From Escherichia coli (lineage in GTDB: Bacteria > Pseudomonadota > Gammaproteobacteria > Enterobacterales > Enterobacteriaceae): DNA of 64,000 nt. Positions 3,034-10,044 of this stretch are shown in pieces (positions within the stretch are counted from its first letter, which is position 1; each line of letters opens with the position of its first letter). A program made the translations under genes and the position numbers. The notes under the pieces are model-generated. The model did no database searches, was not told the DNA's origin, and saw nothing but the letters and a program-made list of their open reading frames with translations. The stretch is from assembly GCF_050320075.1 (NCBI RefSeq), contig NZ_CP190018.1; one strand, 5' to 3'.

Positions 3034-3232
3034 GATATGGGGTTTTGGTCGTTGTTAATGAGCAGGACAATCATGACCGCCAACGACTGGATTCTCCCTT
3101 GGTTTATGTTTGTCAAAGCTCAGTGAAAATGTCTAATCACTGGCTCATTAGAAATGTCCATATGTTGAAAAGGCCGCTGCGAAAATCCCTCCCGCAACGG
3201 CCTCTTTAGCATAACGTCATTATGCGAACCAA

Positions 3233-4585
3233 TTATGGTTTGAGTTTATACTTCTGACCATTAATGATTTTTTTGATTAACTCGAATGCAGCGGGGGAAT
3301 ATTTATGAACACCTTCCTTCCCCGTTTTCACTAGCACATGATAGTTATTATCTGAGGATTTAATATTAAAACCAGTTTCCTTGTGTATTCTTTCTAATAC
3401 TTTATGGACGTAATGCCAAGATCCCATATCAAGTAATTTTGCAAGTTCAGATATGGTGTAGGGATAGCTTGCGTTAAGTGCTTGCCCATTATTTAACTCT
3501 GCAATTCCATAAAGTTTCGCTAACACGTTATCTTGCTCAGCAATGTTCTTAAGCATTTCAAAATCATATGGAAGCTCTTGTTTTACAAGAGATTGAGAGG
3601 CAAATGTATAGGTTCTGGCTAATAGCGCCCTGACTAATTTTGGGTTAACACTGATTTCTGGCGTATTTGACGATAGGGCATCATAAATCCAACCGAAATC
3701 ATTGGCATAGATCACTTTGATTCGGATGCTTTTATTTTCACCAACACCAATCAAAATCTCTTTCTGGTGTGAACCTGTACCTTCACATTCTGGACTAAAG
3801 GAAACCAAATAAATATTCGGAATCAAAGCGTTATTTGGCGCAATTATCTCATCAATATCAGACAGGATGGCTTTAATATTCTCATCATTAATACTATAGC
3901 CAATGAAGAACAACGGATGCTCGACGAAATATGTTAATAGTTTTGCACTGATATACTTTTTACGCTTATAAAACTCAACATAGTCTTCATTTGTTATAAT
4001 GATGCTTTCTGGTTCTTTACTACTGCCGTGAATCTTCATGATTTCACCGTATGTAGTATAGTTAACAGTCACAACATTATGGCCAACTATCGGTTGGTAG
4101 TTATCAAATATCTTTTCAAGCAGATCGTCATAGTTTGTTGTAATAATGGCATGGGGCCTTACTTTTTTTAACTTTTCAATTTCTTCAGTGTACTCCATTG
4201 CTGAAAAATCAACCGAGTCTGAAAGGTTATTCAACAATGTTGCAATCTCATGCTTGATATATATATCTTTAGAGCTTTTTCCATTGAAATACTGTTCAGG
4301 ATAACGAGATGTCCCCACATCCCAAGCCCACTCAGCGTATGACTCAGAAAAATCACTTGCTATCATTGGTTTATTGTCATTTCTTGTTTGACTGTAGTAA
4401 CCATACGGGCGAGTGATTAATGGGCAAGTTTCAGCGAGATACTTTAACAGGTTTTCCCAATCAGGAGCTTTCAAGTAGCGTTGAGATACCCCTGCACCCA
4501 TAAAGAGAATTGGCTGTACCTGTAAACCTTCAAGACATGATTTGATATCTTCAATTATTTCTGTCTGATATTCAGAGAAGTCCAT
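3233..4585 (-). CDS. SIR2-like (SIR2_2 / DHS-like NAD-binding fold) protein with uncharacterised C-terminal domain; candidate orphan defence NADase
   Basis: 450-aa ORF; N-terminal motifs PILFMGAGVSQ...PDWENLL, then ITTNYDDLLE and KIHGS resemble the defence-associated SIR2 family (ThsA-like/DSR-like); markedly low GC compared with flanks; function is inferred. Confidence 0.6.
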   Translation of the reverse strand: MDFSEYQTEIIEDIKSCLEGLQVQPILFMGAGVSQRYLKAPDWENLLKYLAETCPLITRPYGYYSQTRNDNKPMIASDFSESYAEWAWDVGTSRYPEQYFNGKSSKDIYIKHEIATLLNNLSDSVDFSAMEYTEEIEKLKKVRPHAIITTNYDDLLEKIFDNYQPIVGHNVVTVNYTTYGEIMKIHGSSKEPESIIITNEDYVEFYKRKKYISAKLLTYFVEHPLFFIGYSINDENIKAILSDIDEIIAPNNALIPNIYLVSFSPECEGTGSHQKEILIGVGENKSIRIKVIYANDFGWIYDALSSNTPEISVNPKLVRALLARTYTFASQSLVKQELPYDFEMLKNIAEQDNVLAKLYGIAELNNGQALNASYPYTISELAKLLDMGSWHYVHKVLERIHKETGFNIKSSDNNYHVLVKTGKEGVHKYSPAAFELIKKIINGQKYKLKP

Positions 4586-4799
4586 ACTTTAGCCTTTAGG
4601 ATGTGAGATGCTGGAGTAGTAAATCGCCGCGGAGCGGTTCGGGGTTCTGTGACACCCGAATTTTACCTCGGTTTCCTTTGTATATAATATCATTGAAGTT
4701 ATTTGCATTTCTCAGAAATCTTCTCTGGCTTTGATTGCTATAGCCGAAAGATAGCGCACACTTCGCCGTTGGTCAGTTAGTACGAGGTTTCCGCCAAGT

Positions 4800-5835
4800 T
4801 CACCTTTTACCAAAGATGGCCTCAGAGCTTCCCTGAAGCTTTATCATGGTTTCAAGTAGGTCATCTTCGTTCAGTGAGCGCTGAGATTTGTTGATGCTAG
4901 GCGCGTGCCGTCTGCGGGAAGGCTCATCACCAGAACAAGGTAACGATAGTGAGCGATTATTGTCCCGTTTTCTCTGGACCTGACGGGCAACATCCAACAC
5001 ATGGCCAAGTCTCTTGTTATCTACAATGGCGACGGGCTCAACCTCAGAAAGCCGGTCATAGGTGGAGTAGGGTAGCAGCACGCCATTTAGTCGCAGCTCC
5101 TTATGTCCGTCAGGATAATGCCAGACATCAATATACTTGCCGATGGCTCTTCGACTGTACTCGTTGTCCTCAATCAGATAGAGCATTTTATCGTATTGTA
5201 CAGTCAGATTTTTTGATACCCGGCGAGGCTCTCGCCAGGTAAATTCTGCATCAAGGTCATCGTCTAATGCCAGCGGCCGGTACGCGTTAAAATCATGCAA
5301 GGGTTCTTTGGCAAAGCGCCGGTTATAATCCGCCATGTATTCTTCTGCAAATGCATTGGCCGCTTCTATTGTACAGATCCCCTTAAGCCTGAGCTCCTTA
5401 ACGAGTCGGTCCTGAAGTGTCAAATGAGCACGTTCAACGCGGCCTTTTGCCTGGCTGGTTTCAGCACACAAAGGAGTAATATTAAGGCAGCGCATGGCCC
5501 TGGCAAACTGGGTATCGCCGAGACCGGTGGTGGCGTGCTTATTATTGACTCTGAATACGCTGGCTTTATCGCTGTAGAGGATCATCGGTTTACCGTATTC
5601 AGTGGTGGTCGCAGCCATCAATTTGTATCAGCTCGCCAGTACAAGGACGCCGGTAACGAGGCTGATGAATTTTCGGTGCGCGTTGTCTGCGGGGGATCCA
5701 GAGTCCCGCGTTTATCATGAGACGTCGGATGGTTTCCTTTCCAAGGACCAGACCGTGAACTTCCTCCAGCTTTTCCCGCGCCAGCGTGGGGCCAAAATCA
5801 CGGTAGTGCTCCCGGATTATACTGAGTGCCTCCAA
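4800..5835 (-). pseudogene. rve-type (integrase-core, DDE) transposase split by a frameshift; IS remnant
   Basis: Two overlapping ORFs in different frames (5599..5835 N-terminal part ending IQIDGCDHH; 4800..5621 C-terminal part with YSDKASVF and KGRVERAHLTL motifs) together resemble one IS481/ISNCY-like transposase; family assignment is tentative. Confidence 0.55.
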
Positions 5836-6198
5836 TGAGCCACAAATAGAACATTAGCATTGAGCCTCTATAATTTTGGTGCGCATAATGTATATTATGT
5901 TAAATGTGGTGGGTTTGTTCTTAAGTTCATGTGTTCCGCTCTTTCAGTAGCTTAACTGATGAATCAGTCAGCAGCTCTTGCCGTGCAAGCTACGCGGCGG
6001 TTCGTACCAGATTGGCCACCTCCATCTCCTGGTTCGCTTTCCCCTCCCCCCGGTAAACCTCACCCAACGTTAATTAATGATGTCAGTATGTGGGCGCTAT
6101 CCTTGTATGTAAAATCCACTGACGATTACGCCCATCTGTGAAAAAAAACTCACAATGCCATTCGATGCATCTCCATACTGAACGAGGCGTTATCGTCT

Positions 6199-7098
6199 TT
6201 ATCGCCCCGTAGTGGATATCAGAAAATCAATCAGGGCCTTCACTCTTTTCGTTTTACCCGCGTTTTTGGGGTAATAGAGATACACTGGCGGGTAGGTTTT
6301 CCAGTATCTCTCCATCACCGGAATAAAGCGCTCCCTGTCCGGCTGTAACTGCCAGACAGGCTCAAACAAGCGCCCAATTCCCAGCCCGTTACGGATCCCG
6401 TCTGCCATAACGTCAATATCGTTGCTGATTAACTGCCCCGGCATCTCAACGGTCAACTGCTCACCGCGATCGTTCAGGAGCAGCGGAAGGATGCGGTTGT
6501 TGGTGATAAAACGGTAACCAATCAGCTGGTGATGACAGAGATCTGCCGGCACTTCAGGCGTTCCATGTCGGGAGAGATACGCTGAGGATGCATATAATCC
6601 TTCACGAAACGGTTTCATTAACGGTCGGGCCACCACCCCTCCCTCAAGAATATCGCCAAAACGGATCCCCAGATCAAAACGCTCTTTGATGATATTCACG
6701 GTACCGTCGTAGACCGAAATTTCTAACTGTATACCCGGATATTGCTGACAGAATTCTGCCATCGCAGGCTTAAGAATTAACAGGTAGGCAAAACGCGAGA
6801 GCGTAATTCGCACCATCCCAGAGGGCTCCTGATGCTGGTCGCGAATGCTTTCAAGTGAGTTTTCCAGCGACTCCACCGCCGCAGCGGTCTGTTCCAGCAA
6901 TAATTGACCGGTTTCCGTCAGCTCTATACGGCGGGTCGTACGCACAAAAAGCGGATGGCCGATATACTCTTCCAGCAGCTTTAGTGCATTGCTGACGGAG
7001 GGAGGCGTAATTTCCAGTTTCCTTGCGGCTGCCGAAATATTGCCCTCCCGCGCAATGCTCTGGAAGATGCGAATCTGGTTATAAAGAGCGTTATTCAT
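6199..7098 (-). CDS. LysR-family transcriptional regulator
   Basis: 299 aa; N-terminal HTH IAREGNISAAARKLEITPPSVSNALKLLEE typical of LysR family; divergent from adjacent operon. Confidence 0.85.
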   Translation of the reverse strand: MNNALYNQIRIFQSIAREGNISAAARKLEITPPSVSNALKLLEEYIGHPLFVRTTRRIELTETGQLLLEQTAAAVESLENSLESIRDQHQEPSGMVRITLSRFAYLLILKPAMAEFCQQYPGIQLEISVYDGTVNIIKERFDLGIRFGDILEGGVVARPLMKPFREGLYASSAYLSRHGTPEVPADLCHHQLIGYRFITNNRILPLLLNDRGEQLTVEMPGQLISNDIDVMADGIRNGLGIGRLFEPVWQLQPDRERFIPVMERYWKTYPPVYLYYPKNAGKTKRVKALIDFLISTTGR

Positions 7099-7233
7099 AA
7101 TGTTTTCCTAAGCAATTCTCGCCTGATTATTAAGTACAGTCTAAAAATGCTTAAGTCAATGACCCTCTAATCTTCCTGAAATACGCCTCTTATACTTTAG
7201 TCTCTTTCTACTACGACCTGAGTTCAGGAGACT

Positions 7234-7545
7234 ATGATGCGAATTTTATGTCTGGATATCCCTGCCCCTGGAGCATCGCTGGAGAAATATGCTCCGCACC
7301 TCAACGCTGAAGCGCTGCACGCCTGGGGATTGTATAAATCAGGCTTCATCCGCGACATCTACTTCCGTCAGGACAGACCTGGCGTCGCTATTTTTCTTGA
7401 ATGTGACTCTGTCGATGAAGCGATGAACGTTATGGCCGAATTCCCGTTGGCAAAAGCAGGCTTACTAAGCTTCGAGTGTATACCGCTTGGCTCCTTTATT
7501 AACTGGGAAAATCTCTTCGCCGATGAATTTAAAAATAAAGAGTGA
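7234..7545 (+). CDS. Small muconolactone-isomerase-like (Dabb-fold) protein
   Basis: 103 aa, AGGAG RBS at 7225-7229; pattern W-G-(x)-R-Y-(x)-G-V-F-(x)-S-(x)-EA-M-(x)-PL resembles the muconolactone isomerase family; weak, by recollection. Confidence 0.45.
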   Translation: MMRILCLDIPAPGASLEKYAPHLNAEALHAWGLYKSGFIRDIYFRQDRPGVAIFLECDSVDEAMNVMAEFPLAKAGLLSFECIPLGSFINWENLFADEFKNKE

Positions 7546-7553
7546 GGACCGAT

Positions 7554-8243
7554 ATGAAACCTGCATATAAACCAGTGCTATGTGTCGTTTCCAGCCATCC
7601 GATTAAAGGCGCATCCGGTGTACCAACCGGTTTTTTCCTGGCCGAGCTGACTCATCCGCTGAAAGTACTGGAAGATGCCGGAATAAAAACAACAATAGCC
7701 AGTATTCGCGGGGGGCAGCCACCGGTGGATGGATTTGACCTCAGCGACCCTGTTAACGCCTGGTACTGGAACGAAACCGATTTTCAGCAGCGCCTGGCAA
7801 CAACACCTGCGTTATCCGAGCTGAAAGGTGCCGATTACAGCGCAGTTTTCTTTGCAGGTGGTCATGGGACCATGTGGGATTTCCGTGATAATCAGGATGC
7901 CCAGCGTATTATCCGCGAAGTGTATGAAAGTGATGGGATTGTCTCAGCCGTCTGCCACGGGCCTGCGGCATTGGTTGACGCAAAACTCAGTAGCGGCGAA
8001 TACCTGATAAAAGGGAAAAATGTGGCGGCCTTTACCAACAAGGAAGAGGAAGAAGTTCACACAACAGATGTGGTTCCCTTCCTGCTTGAAACCGCACTTC
8101 GCGAGCATGGTGCGCTTTATCATGAAGCTCCAAACTGGTCTGAAAACGTGGTTACCGACGATCGCCTTATCACGGGGCAGAATCCCGCTTCAGCACATGG
8201 GGTTGGTGTGGCGCTGTTAAATGCACTCCGCCGGACAGCTTAA
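7554..8243 (+). CDS. DJ-1/PfpI (class I glutamine amidotransferase-like) family protein
   Basis: ATG at 7554 with GAGG RBS; conserved AVCHGPAAL nucleophile-elbow-type motif. Confidence 0.75.
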   Translation: MKPAYKPVLCVVSSHPIKGASGVPTGFFLAELTHPLKVLEDAGIKTTIASIRGGQPPVDGFDLSDPVNAWYWNETDFQQRLATTPALSELKGADYSAVFFAGGHGTMWDFRDNQDAQRIIREVYESDGIVSAVCHGPAALVDAKLSSGEYLIKGKNVAAFTNKEEEEVHTTDVVPFLLETALREHGALYHEAPNWSENVVTDDRLITGQNPASAHGVGVALLNALRRTA

Positions 8244-8316
8244 TTAATTCATCGTTACTCACCTTACTTGGCCGGTTTAAGTCAGCCACGATCCGGCCTT
8301 TTTTCAGGAGCTGAAT

Positions 8317-9264
8317 ATGAAAACACTACCTCCAGTCGCACTAGGTACATGGTCCTGGGGCACAGGCTTTGCCGGCGGCGACACCGTCTTTGGTAATCAT
8401 CTTTCTGATACTCAGATGGCAGAAGTGTTCACTGCGGCCATGAGTAAGGGCCTCAATCTCTGGGATACCGCAGCAGTATATGGTATGGGGAGTTCCGAGA
8501 CTGCGCTGGGAGCATTAGTCCGTCAGTTTCCCCGCGAGAACATAATTTTATCCACCAAATTCACGCCGCAGATTGCGGACAAGCAGTCTGCGCAGCCTGT
8601 CAGCGATATGCTTGAGGCCAGCCTTGGGCGCCTGGGCGTGGACGCGATTGATATCTACTGGATCCATAATCCCCTCGACGTCGAAAAATGGACACCAGGA
8701 CTGATCCCACTTTTACAAAGCGGTAAGGTAAAACGCGTAGGTGTTTCCAACCACAATCTGGCACAAATCAGACGCGCCAATGAAATCCTTAACGCTTCCG
8801 GTTATTCCCTCAGTGCAGTACAAAATCACTACAGCCTGCTCTATCGCGCTTCTGAAGAGGCCGGGATCCTTGATTATTGCCGACAAAATAACATCACGTT
8901 CTTTGCTTACATGGTCCTGGAGCAAGGCGCGCTCAGTGGTCGTTATGATTCAAATCATCCCATGCCTGCCGGGAGTGGCCGGGCCGAAAGTTATAACGCA
9001 GTACTGCCGCAGATAGAAAGACTAACCGCCGCCATGAAAAAAATGGGAGCCGAAAGGAATGCCAGCGTGGCACAGATAGCCATCGCATGGGCTATTGCGA
9101 AAGGTACCCTTCCCCTCGTTGGTGCGACTAAAGTCCATCACGTTCTGGACGCCGCCTGCGCTTCAGACATCCAGTTACGCGATGAGGAAATCATCCTGCT
9201 GGAACAACTCGCCGCAGAGACCAGAGTGGATACACGAGGCGCCTGGGAAAAACCGATGGTGTAA
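8317..9264 (+). CDS. Aldo/keto reductase
   Basis: 315 aa; AKR-type motifs (WDTAAVYG, LSTKF, GVSNH). Confidence 0.8.
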   Translation: MKTLPPVALGTWSWGTGFAGGDTVFGNHLSDTQMAEVFTAAMSKGLNLWDTAAVYGMGSSETALGALVRQFPRENIILSTKFTPQIADKQSAQPVSDMLEASLGRLGVDAIDIYWIHNPLDVEKWTPGLIPLLQSGKVKRVGVSNHNLAQIRRANEILNASGYSLSAVQNHYSLLYRASEEAGILDYCRQNNITFFAYMVLEQGALSGRYDSNHPMPAGSGRAESYNAVLPQIERLTAAMKKMGAERNASVAQIAIAWAIAKGTLPLVGATKVHHVLDAACASDIQLRDEEIILLEQLAAETRVDTRGAWEKPMV

Positions 9265-9366
9265 AGCCCGTCCGGAACAGACTGTCATGAATGACACACA
9301 CGAACGGGCTGTTCCGGGTGATTCTAATCTGTATCACTTTTACTGCTTTGTATGAATGGTGAGAAT

Positions 9367-10044
9367 ATGAAAATCATTTGCCTCGAAGAACATTATCTCG
9401 ACAGCGAGTTAGGGCGAGCGTGTATGCCTGTTGCGCTTGAGCAGGCACCTTTCCTTGGCGACAGGGGGAAAACCGTCGCTGATGGTCATAATCCTGACCG
9501 ACTCCCTGCTTTCCCGCTTTAATAAACTGAATGTGCCACTCTATCTTCATCCCGGGTTACCGCTTAAAAGCGTACAGCAGGCCTACTTCACGGGCTTCAG
9601 CGCAGAGGTCAACGCCAGGCTTTCTATGTTTGCCTGGGGCTGGCATCACGAAGCGGGGATCCATTTGTTGCGGCTGATGTTATCGGGCGCATTTGATAAA
9701 TATCCCAACCTGCAGGTAATCAGTGGCCACTGGGGGGAGATGTTACCCTTCTGGCTCCAGCGTCTTGATGACAGCCTACCACTGGCTGCAACGGGTCTGT
9801 CACGCACGCTAACGAGAACCTTCCAGGAACACGTTTACGTTACCCCGTCATATGCTAACACTGCCGCACTTCCAGTTTATCTACGCGTTAATGGGTGCTG
9901 AAAGGATCCTGTTCTCCGTCGGTTATCCCTATCAGACCCCTGGACGGTGTAAAAACCTTTATAGACAGTCTGCCCGTCAACAAGGCTGAAAAAGAGGCCA
10001 TCGCGTTTCGCAATGCAGAACGTTTACTGGGCATCACGGTTTAG
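9367..10044 (+). pseudogene. Amidohydrolase-2 family gene broken into three reading frames
   Basis: Starts MKIICLEEHY (frame 1, stops after about 50 codons), continues in the 9431..9901 ORF (HWGEMLPFW motif) and ends in a third frame (ILFSVGYPY ... AERLLGITV stop); at least two frameshifts. Confidence 0.6.

Follow-up and report, generated by a model that had tools for sequence, protein, structure and literature searches.

Why does a gene of the SIR2 family lie next to hipBA in Escherichia coli, in DNA poorer in GC than the genes around it, and what might its product do? The question is raised by a 64,000-nucleotide stretch of E. coli contig NZ_CP190018.1 (assembly GCF_050320075.1), called the window here. 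An open reading frame (ORF) of 450 amino acids (aa) occupies positions 3233-4585 on its minus strand, with an ATG start and a stop codon at 3233-3235. An earlier interpretation, made without database searches (the sequence-only reading), had proposed this gene as an undescribed single-gene defence module. The analysis presented here suggests that it probably encodes a stand-alone defence-type SIR2 NADase, sensor and effector in one polypeptide, and that it is the passenger of an insertion sequence (IS) which targets the chromosomal dif site.

The SIR2 gene and its protein

The ORF opposite hipBA carries the three motifs listed by the sequence-only reading, GAGxS, TTNYDDLLE and HGS. They are found within ILFMGAGVSQR (GAGVS at residues 30-34), ITTNYDDLLE (148-157) and KIHGSS (184-189). 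The SIR2 fold proposed on their basis was borne out: residues 146-266 match Pfam SIR2_2 (PF13289) with E=3.2e-25. The Pfam scan of the whole protein returned no significant match beyond SIR2_2 and no other SIR2 family, and neither a SLOG nor an APAZ domain was detected by it. In RefSeq the ORF is WP_001551127.1, a "SIR2 family NAD-dependent protein deacylase"; a literature search gave no paper citing this accession.

An alignment of 40 homologues (43-80% identity) was used to assess conservation. G30, G32, T149, T150, N151, D153, H186 and G187 are invariant in it. N151 of TTNYD and H186 of KIHGS are the predicted catalytic residues, and both are intact. The motifs around them, ITTNYD and (K)xHG, can be aligned with DSR2, where the catalytic residues are N133 and H171. 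Among solved structures, the only sequence matches are to defence NADases, namely DSR2, ThsA, KomC and a USG protein, and these matches span the catalytic ITTNYD and HG motifs.

A model of the protein was built from the alignment with AlphaFold2 (mean predicted local distance difference test score, pLDDT, of 80). Three parts are seen in it. Residues 1-310 (positions 3656-4585, minus strand) form a confident SIR2 NADase domain with a beta-rich extension. Residues 311-366 (3488-3655) are linker helices of low confidence (pLDDT below 50 at 321-366), within which the 40 homologues share a conserved LAKLYGI motif. Residues 367-450 (3236-3487) form a confident small domain. When the model was compared with the PDB by Foldseek, DSR2, KomC and ThsA were the top matches (E~1e-9), with the ThsA structures 6lhx and 8bto among the best.

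The fold of the 84-residue C-terminal domain resembles the DNA-binding domains of RacA, Par, MerR, GlnR and Xis, that is, a winged helix-turn-helix (wHTH) of MerR/excisionase type and a putative sensor. The sequence-only reading had guessed at a winged-helix-like module here, and structure prediction together with the fold search lends that guess support of modest strength. Pfam and PDB sequence searches with the domain gave nothing significant; the lead came from the fold comparison. Five of its residues (W390, N413, H416, Y429 and S430) are invariant in the 40 homologues, and it is mildly basic, with a median isoelectric point of 7.8 vs 4.8 for the SIR2 part. A profile of the domain found only 195 matches among 1.84 billion representative proteins, all of them SIR2 proteins of about 450 aa with the domain at about residues 365-450, or fragments of such proteins; a single 1262-aa match was a low-complexity artefact. 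A Foldseek search of AFDB50 was likewise restricted to the 450-aa SIR2 family. Since both searches are confined in this way, the domain is specific to the family, and a module shuffled among other effectors is ruled out by these profile and fold searches.

An insertion sequence beside dif and its passenger slot

The GC content is 0.34-0.39 over positions 3200-4600, vs 0.46-0.50 in hipA and 0.49-0.52 in the LysR cluster. The contrast in composition described by the sequence-only reading is thus real, and the gene lies in a horizontally acquired islet of about 35% GC. In the RefSeq annotation its neighbours are hipA and an ISNCY transposase pseudogene, which is frameshifted and has lost its N-terminus. 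The limits of the islet were set by comparison with NZ_AP022478.1, in which hipBA and the LysR cluster are present and the SIR2 gene is absent. This empty site defines an islet of 2.76 kb at 3111-5872, and together with plasmid copies it identifies the islet as an IS1202-family element (ISNCY, ISAba32-subgroup-like), on the minus strand, plus a passenger. Judged from its behaviour and hosts, the backbone appears ISKpn21-like. Both ends of the element are intact and its transposase is disabled.

The longest inverted repeat of the region has arms at 3118-3152 and 5831-5865 (35 nt, 71% complementary), which end a few bases inside the islet junctions. The right inverted repeat (IRR), beginning TGTCAAAGCTCAGTG, extends over 3111-3152, and the left inverted repeat (IRL) over 5831-5872. 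The IRR end is conserved in about 593 plasmids, and the IRL is kept beside Xer sites at three further loci (L100, L101 and L030). The islet is bordered by a target direct repeat, ATGTT at 3106-3110 and ATTTT at 5873-5877, identical at four of five positions with one mismatch. At the empty site of NZ_AP022478.1 a single ATGTT abuts dif. In the plasmid and Pantoea copies of the element the 5-bp repeats are perfect (ATCTT and CCATT, respectively). Two other explanations of the islet ends were rejected: a target duplication of 27-28 bp, the 28-bp sequence being dif itself, and an integron cassette of attC type, the ends being IS inverted repeats with a 5-bp repeat.

The dif site lies at 5878-5905 on the plus strand. 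Its sequence, GGTGCGCATAATGTATATTATGTTAAAT, is an exact 28/28 match to E. coli dif, is unique in the window and was recovered in 0/100 shuffles. It consists of GGTGCGCATAA, which we take to be the XerC arm, the centre TGTATA and the XerD arm TTATGTTAAAT. Five bases separate the end of the IRL at 5872 from the XerC arm, with which dif begins at 5878. Because an exact copy of dif is present, the window spans the replication terminus. PMC3025954 reports this 28-bp sequence as the dif of E. coli.

This arrangement is the one reported for the ISAba32 subgroup of the IS1202 family. Its members produce a direct repeat of 5-6 bp and insert in one orientation 5-6 bp from XerCD sites, with the IRL beside the XerC arm, chromosomal dif included; a few of them, e.g. 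ISKpn21, carry a passenger gene (Siguier et al., bioRxiv 10.1101/2022.12.17.520857). The islet shares with the subgroup an ISNCY/IS1202 transposase, inverted repeats, a 5-bp repeat and insertion adjacent to a XerCD site, and the SIR2 gene, like the passengers of the subgroup, is a single gene downstream of the transposase gene. The two differ in that the passengers in that report are only unrelated hypothetical proteins, whereas the passenger of the islet is a SIR2 defence candidate and its transposase gene has suffered deletions.

The position of the islet beside hipBA is accounted for by the targeting of dif by its carrier, and hipBA is merely the gene pair that adjoins dif in E. coli, so that its adjacency to the SIR2 gene is incidental. 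The low GC content, the transposase remnant and the neighbourhood of hipBA thus have one explanation, carriage of the gene by a dif-targeting IS. The sequence-only reading had placed the gene where K-12 has the yneL remnant. yneL is indeed nearby in K-12, but beyond dif; the islet lies between the 3' flank of hipA and dif, which K-12 joins directly. Position 5905, the final base of dif, is also exactly where homology to K-12 ends. Beyond it, on the XerD side, 5906-15229 hold a 9.3-kb cluster of LysR, DJ-1/PfpI and aldo-keto-reductase genes that is found in 428/5426 genomes; K-12 (NC_000913.3, about 1590080-1590749) has 670 bp there with the yneL pseudogene. The variability on both sides of dif might reflect Xer-mediated or dif-adjacent integration.

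The transposase remnant (4800-5835, minus strand) comprises ORFs 4800-5621 and 5599-5835, and corresponds to the RefSeq pseudogene. Its DNA is 98% identical to an intact 466-aa gene on NZ_CP026208.1 (locus L100), whose product matches NF033594 transpos_ISNCY_2 with E=1.6e-144. Compared with that gene, 134 bp have been lost internally at 5599/5600, and 311 bp at 5831/5834, which removed the start and the first 78 codons or so. A decayed transposase bounding the SIR2 gene on one side had been pointed out by the sequence-only reading; the remnant is there, but it is not a separate feature, since the same element contains the SIR2 gene.

The islet backbone is 98% identical to an element carried by more than 600 enterobacterial plasmids. 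On NZ_CP026208.1 (L100 1321-4168) the order is IRL, 466-aa transposase gene, intergenic leader, passenger and an IRR end of 126 bp that includes a terminator hairpin; the element abuts a plasmid Xer site and has the 5-bp direct repeat ATCTT. The homology between the window and this copy breaks at 3231/3232, next to the SIR2 stop codon, and at 4626/4627, 41 nt upstream of the SIR2 start. Therefore, the SIR2 gene replaces the plasmid passenger in a defined slot. The backbone is conserved on both sides of the slot. From 4627 onward the window is 98.8% identical to NZ_CP026208.1, and 4627-4799 (minus strand), between the transposase stop and the cargo, is the probable cargo promoter or leader. Directly 3' of the cargo gene, an intrinsic terminator hairpin at 3164-3206 (minus strand; 17-bp stem followed by UUUU; folding free energy -32.3 kcal/mol, z = -5.9) lies within the conserved 126-bp IS end and is kept in the plasmid copy.

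Different cargo occupies the slot in sister elements. The passenger of NZ_CP026208.1 belongs to the STM4504/CBY_0614 family; it has AbiJ_NTD4 and DUF7014 domains and matches PDC-S32 weakly. On NZ_CP076655.1 (L101 3501-6553) the slot holds three small genes, including one for an ECs_2282-type CxxC protein, and on NZ_CP031796.1 (L102 3501-5416) it holds a Doc-family toxin gene. At least one of the Doc-like and three-gene copies adjoins an Xer-like site. A Pantoea copy has the same backbone with a 79%-identical SIR2 gene, beside GGTACGCATAATGTATATTATGTTAAAT and with the perfect CCATT repeat. The description of the IS1202 family (bioRxiv 10.1101/2022.12.17.520857) was not found to contain an exchangeable cargo slot with defence-like genes.

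The left end of the islet recurs in six other genera. In Citrobacter, Kluyvera, Dryocola and Erwinia (E. dacicola; L019-L022 and L082), a segment equivalent to 3111-4788, made up of the IRR end, the SIR2 gene and the leader, is kept at about 73% identity with the same left boundary, and no transposase was found in the flanks examined. Since this segment is kept at such divergence in other genera, the SIR2 gene has for some time been linked with an IS end of this kind. Several of these segments are embedded among palindromes resembling repetitive extragenic palindromic (REP) elements.

Some further arrangements were observed. On NZ_CP031796.1 a second ISNCY element lies just past the first, apparently in tandem. 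On plasmid pCuAs of Klebsiella pneumoniae ATCC BAA-2146 (NZ_CP006663.1, L103 3501-7117), the IS end occurs twice, on either side of a hypothetical gene and a gene for a TIR-domain protein. A DUF262 (GmrSD-like) gene adjoins this unit, which has no transposase within range and may represent a remnant or a further defence cargo. All of 4789-5905, with the transposase deletions and the chromosomal dif, recurs at 99.8% identity in four records labelled as E. coli plasmids of 50-72 kb (CP057297.1, CP057306.1, CP057078.1 and CP057410.1); these may be pieces of chromosome deposited as plasmids. In a coarse composition profile of the window, positions 51001-54000 form a second low-GC stretch (GC 0.35, GC skew -0.14).

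Distribution, genomic context and relation to known systems

A search of 5.8 billion proteins returned hundreds of relatives of the 450-aa protein. The best 120 include shorter, partial E. coli entries and many full-length proteins of about 450 aa at 42-80% identity, the latter from Proteus, Providencia, Vibrio, Acinetobacter, Pseudomonas, Paenibacillus, Scalindua and cyanobacteria. When one genome per species was surveyed, relatives were found in 148 of 100,044 species, nearly all of them spanning residues 1-450. The carriers belong to Gamma-, Beta- and Alphaproteobacteria, Bacillota, Planctomycetota, Bacteroidota and Archaea (Methanococcoides, Methanosarcina and Natrinema). Within E. coli, a 1.8-kb query was matched in full by 258 of 5426 complete genomes, 238 of them at 99% identity or more. 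This patchy spread, in E. coli and across species including archaea, counts in favour of a defence role.

Neighbouring genes were compared at 80 loci from 80 species by ORF calling and all-against-all clustering. The two biggest clusters (22 and 16 of the 80 loci) were discarded as antisense shadow ORFs inside the SIR2 gene, and 256-aa genes downstream of the Pseudomonas and Vibrio homologues, considered as a conserved partner, proved mutually unrelated. Each true neighbour family occurs at six loci at most, hence the gene has no obligate partner. The recurrent families are IS3 transposases, serine recombinases, P4-type primases, helicases, generic ABC and SDR paralogues, type I and C5 methyltransferases, and type I and type II restriction-modification genes; no TIR, HerA helicase or short pAgo and no cas genes were found among those annotated. 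In the window, neither the ORFs nor the RefSeq annotation place a TIR, HerA, Argonaute or STAND gene near the SIR2 gene, as the sequence-only reading had maintained. Thus, the SIR2 gene stands alone, without a conserved partner, and the single-gene abortive-infection module proposed by that reading is plausible by analogy. A functional link to hipBA, which the same reading had implied, was rejected on indirect grounds: hipA-like and hipB-like families are absent from the recurrent neighbours of the 80 loci, and targeting of dif explains the position.

The family occurs in mobile and defence-rich contexts. In Acinetobacter the gene lies inside a prophage, between a Mu-F-like head gene and capsid genes; in Pseudomonas aeruginosa it adjoins a Pf-like filamentous prophage, and in Vibrio it is in a prophage-like region. 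It is also present in an integrase islet between pyruvate kinase and zwf, on a Rep3 plasmid, on large conjugative plasmids of Vibrio and Photobacterium, and on an E. coli IncFII plasmid beside two restriction systems. In Thioalkalivibrio it is part of a defence island with SNF2 helicase, Eco57I-type methylase, Mrr, ParE and PIN genes. Flanks of 3 kb on either side were scanned with PADLOC at 11 taxonomically spread loci. At four of them AbiEi/AbiEii, a defence dGTPase, PARIS (AriA/AriB) and PD-T7-3 (E=8e-165) were found; among the other sampled flanks there were a weak DarT match and prophage or P4-like contexts. Such surroundings are the pattern expected of an anti-phage gene.

Among PADLOC-DB models, the protein matches PDC-S25 model PDLC04968 over residues 10-354 (E=2e-82, 276 bits) and PDLC04967 with E=1.6e-35. 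The former alignment covers only profile positions of about 10-350 out of 517, so that the full-length architecture of PDC-S25 is not present. Eight distant relatives within the 450-aa family, from bacterial and archaeal lineages, behave in the same way (247-285 bits), aligning only to positions from about 10-340 to 10-380 of 517. The family and PDC-S25 are both single-gene SIR2-domain defence candidates, but the C-terminal 170 or so positions of the PDC-S25 profile never align, and the 450-aa family has its own 84-residue wHTH there. Because its members align only over the N-terminal part of the profile, the family is, on sequence comparison, best described as a sister subfamily of PDC-S25 with a different C-terminal module. 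The PDC set consists of 145 candidates predicted from their embedding in BREX, DISARM or type I restriction-modification loci (Payne et al., bioRxiv 10.1101/2024.01.29.577857), and an O157:H7 strain is among those in which PADLOC has reported PDC-S25.

The closest characterised systems differ from the protein outside the SIR2 domain. DSR2 and DSR1 are likewise single-protein SIR2 systems and have the ITTNYD and HG motifs and the fold in common with it, whereas they are about 1000-1200 aa long with a large helical sensor region, vs 450 aa and a small wHTH here. DSR2 depletes NAD+ on binding the phage tail tube protein. With 23.7 bits against a cut-off of 1400 for the NCBIfam Dsr2 model, the protein falls outside DSR2. 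ThsA has a SIR2 NADase domain of similar size, and its PADLOC model matches with E=2e-19; however, ThsA carries a C-terminal SLOG domain that binds glyco-cyclic ADP-ribose (gcADPR) and requires the TIR protein ThsB, whereas the 450-aa protein ends in the wHTH, has no SLOG domain by Pfam (as the sequence-only reading had also judged) and has no ThsB beside it. It is thus not a Thoeris protein, and with no HerA or pAgo neighbour it belongs neither to SIR2-HerA (Nezha) nor to SPARSA (SIR2-APAZ/pAgo).

A literature search on stand-alone SIR2 proteins turned up only the preprint on sole-Sir2 (bioRxiv 10.1101/2024.12.27.630466). According to that preprint, sole-Sir2 is a stand-alone protein of about 440 aa with a DSR2-like Sir2 domain; it converts NAD+ to ADP-ribose in vitro, and one of its close homologues gives E. 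coli protection from T2 and T4. It sits inside type I-C cas operons, between cas3 and cas5c, and Neisseria dominates these CRISPR I-C-embedded systems. Going by this description, sole-Sir2 resembles the 450-aa protein in size and in standing alone, and differs from it in having a C-terminal Sir2 domain with an unrelated N-terminus, vs the N-terminal SIR2 domain here. Neisseria sicca ATCC 29256 encodes a full-length 460-aa member of the 450-aa family (AFDB C6M374), which could be a link between the two. The word "undescribed" in the sequence-only reading is therefore wrong: its suggested check against PADLOC models returned PDC-S25, where such candidates are already listed, RefSeq names the SIR2 family, and a sole-Sir2 protein of about 440 aa has been published.

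Function of the gene and alternative explanations

By analogy with DSR2, ThsA and possibly sole-Sir2, the protein would be an NADase that protects against phage and uses its winged helix for sensing. The N-terminal 310 residues or so would hydrolyse NAD+ by means of Asn151 and His186, and the flexible linker would connect this NADase to the winged helix found only in the family. In uninfected cells the enzyme would be inactive. Its infection cue, which might for instance be phage DNA, a phage protein or a replication intermediate, would be sensed most plausibly by the C-terminal domain or else by the protein as a whole. Sensing would probably lead to oligomerisation and then to depletion of NAD+, and a cell so depleted would cease to support phage replication, i.e. 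abortive infection. As for its arrival, an ISKpn21-like IS1202-family element inserted 5 bp from the XerC arm of dif, and two later deletions put an end to its transposase.

Several points weigh against a defence role. A simple promoter scan found no sigma-70 consensus directly upstream of the SIR2 gene, so its expression is putative. At seven of the 11 loci scanned with PADLOC the flanks are without a strong match. Among 50,697 isolated phage genomes no complete member of the family was found, only partial homologues of the SIR2 region. The passenger of an IS might serve the element and not the host. PDC-S25 itself is explicitly a candidate only (bioRxiv 10.1101/2024.01.29.577857), and the role suggested for the 450-aa family is likewise putative. 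Partial homologues were seen in Bacillus phage phBC6A51 (NC_004820.1, 53317-54234) and Mycolicibacterium phage J1 (MZ417522.1, 13148-14104); at 31-32% identity over residues 18-326, they correspond to the SIR2 part without the winged helix.

Of the alternatives, the one that survives best, although it is unlikely, is that the SIR2 gene serves its element, by stabilising the IS or a plasmid through post-segregational or addiction toxicity, or by excluding competitors at Xer sites, with any phage protection incidental. The gene does occupy the passenger slot of an IS that targets dif and xrs sites, another cargo of that slot is a Doc-family toxin, and members of the family are found on conjugative plasmids. 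However, neither an antitoxin-like partner nor any conserved neighbour is seen; most members of the family are without this IS; the chromosomal copy has stayed intact, at 99% identity or more in 238 genomes, despite a dead transposase; and the neighbours that recur are anti-phage systems.

That the winged helix instead directs the SIR2 domain to DNA, making the protein an ADP-ribosyltransferase or deacylase acting on DNA or DNA-bound proteins, or an NAD-sensing transcription factor, and not an agent of bulk NAD+ depletion, is quite improbable. The likeness of the C-terminal fold to known DNA-binding domains favours such a role, and some sirtuins ADP-ribosylate their substrates. Against it, the nearest relatives in sequence and in structure are all NAD+ glycohydrolases, the wHTH domain is near neutral, and no target operon or conserved adjacent gene is found.

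It is very unlikely that the protein is an orphaned effector, inert alone after the loss of a sensor partner such as ThsB, HerA or Ago. Many SIR2 effectors do act in multi-gene systems, and the PADLOC models for ThsA, LmuA and Aga_SIR2 match the protein; but its full length, C-terminal domain included, is conserved across bacteria and archaea, a partner is absent from the 80 loci, and there is neither a SLOG nor an APAZ domain. The least credible option of all is the one implied by the product name in RefSeq, an NAD-dependent protein deacylase with an ordinary housekeeping role, for no NCBIfam deacylase model matches (the best match being the sub-threshold one to Dsr2), Pfam gives SIR2_2 only, the structural neighbours are defence NADases, and the gene is confined to fewer than 5% of E. 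coli genomes, in mobile DNA of low GC content.

The stand-alone NADase carried by a dif-targeting IS thus remains the preferred explanation. A bolder version of it joins two proposals: that the dif- and xrs-homing IS1202-family lineage is a shuttle whose precise slot swaps SIR2-wHTH, AbiJ-like, Doc-like and three-gene modules, with dif and xrs sites as landing pads for defence genes, and that SIR2-wHTH is a new nucleic-acid-sensing NADase triggered by its MerR/Xis-like winged helix. Taken together, these are offered tentatively, as a possibility that is more apt to fail than to hold.

Should the gene prove protective, its product would be among the smallest self-contained SIR2 immune proteins, and the 84-residue winged-helix sensor would make it a tractable system for studying how SIR2 NADases are switched. 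A PADLOC candidate class would then become a characterised system, one whose members occur in both bacteria and archaea, some of them in prophages or on plasmids of clinical relevance. The carrier with an exchangeable slot for defence-like cargo is a more surprising result than the SIR2 gene itself. If the proposal holds, an IS that homes to dif and xrs sites while swapping such cargo would explain why genes of this kind turn up near dif, and would offer immune genes a simple way to move between the terminus of the chromosome and plasmids.

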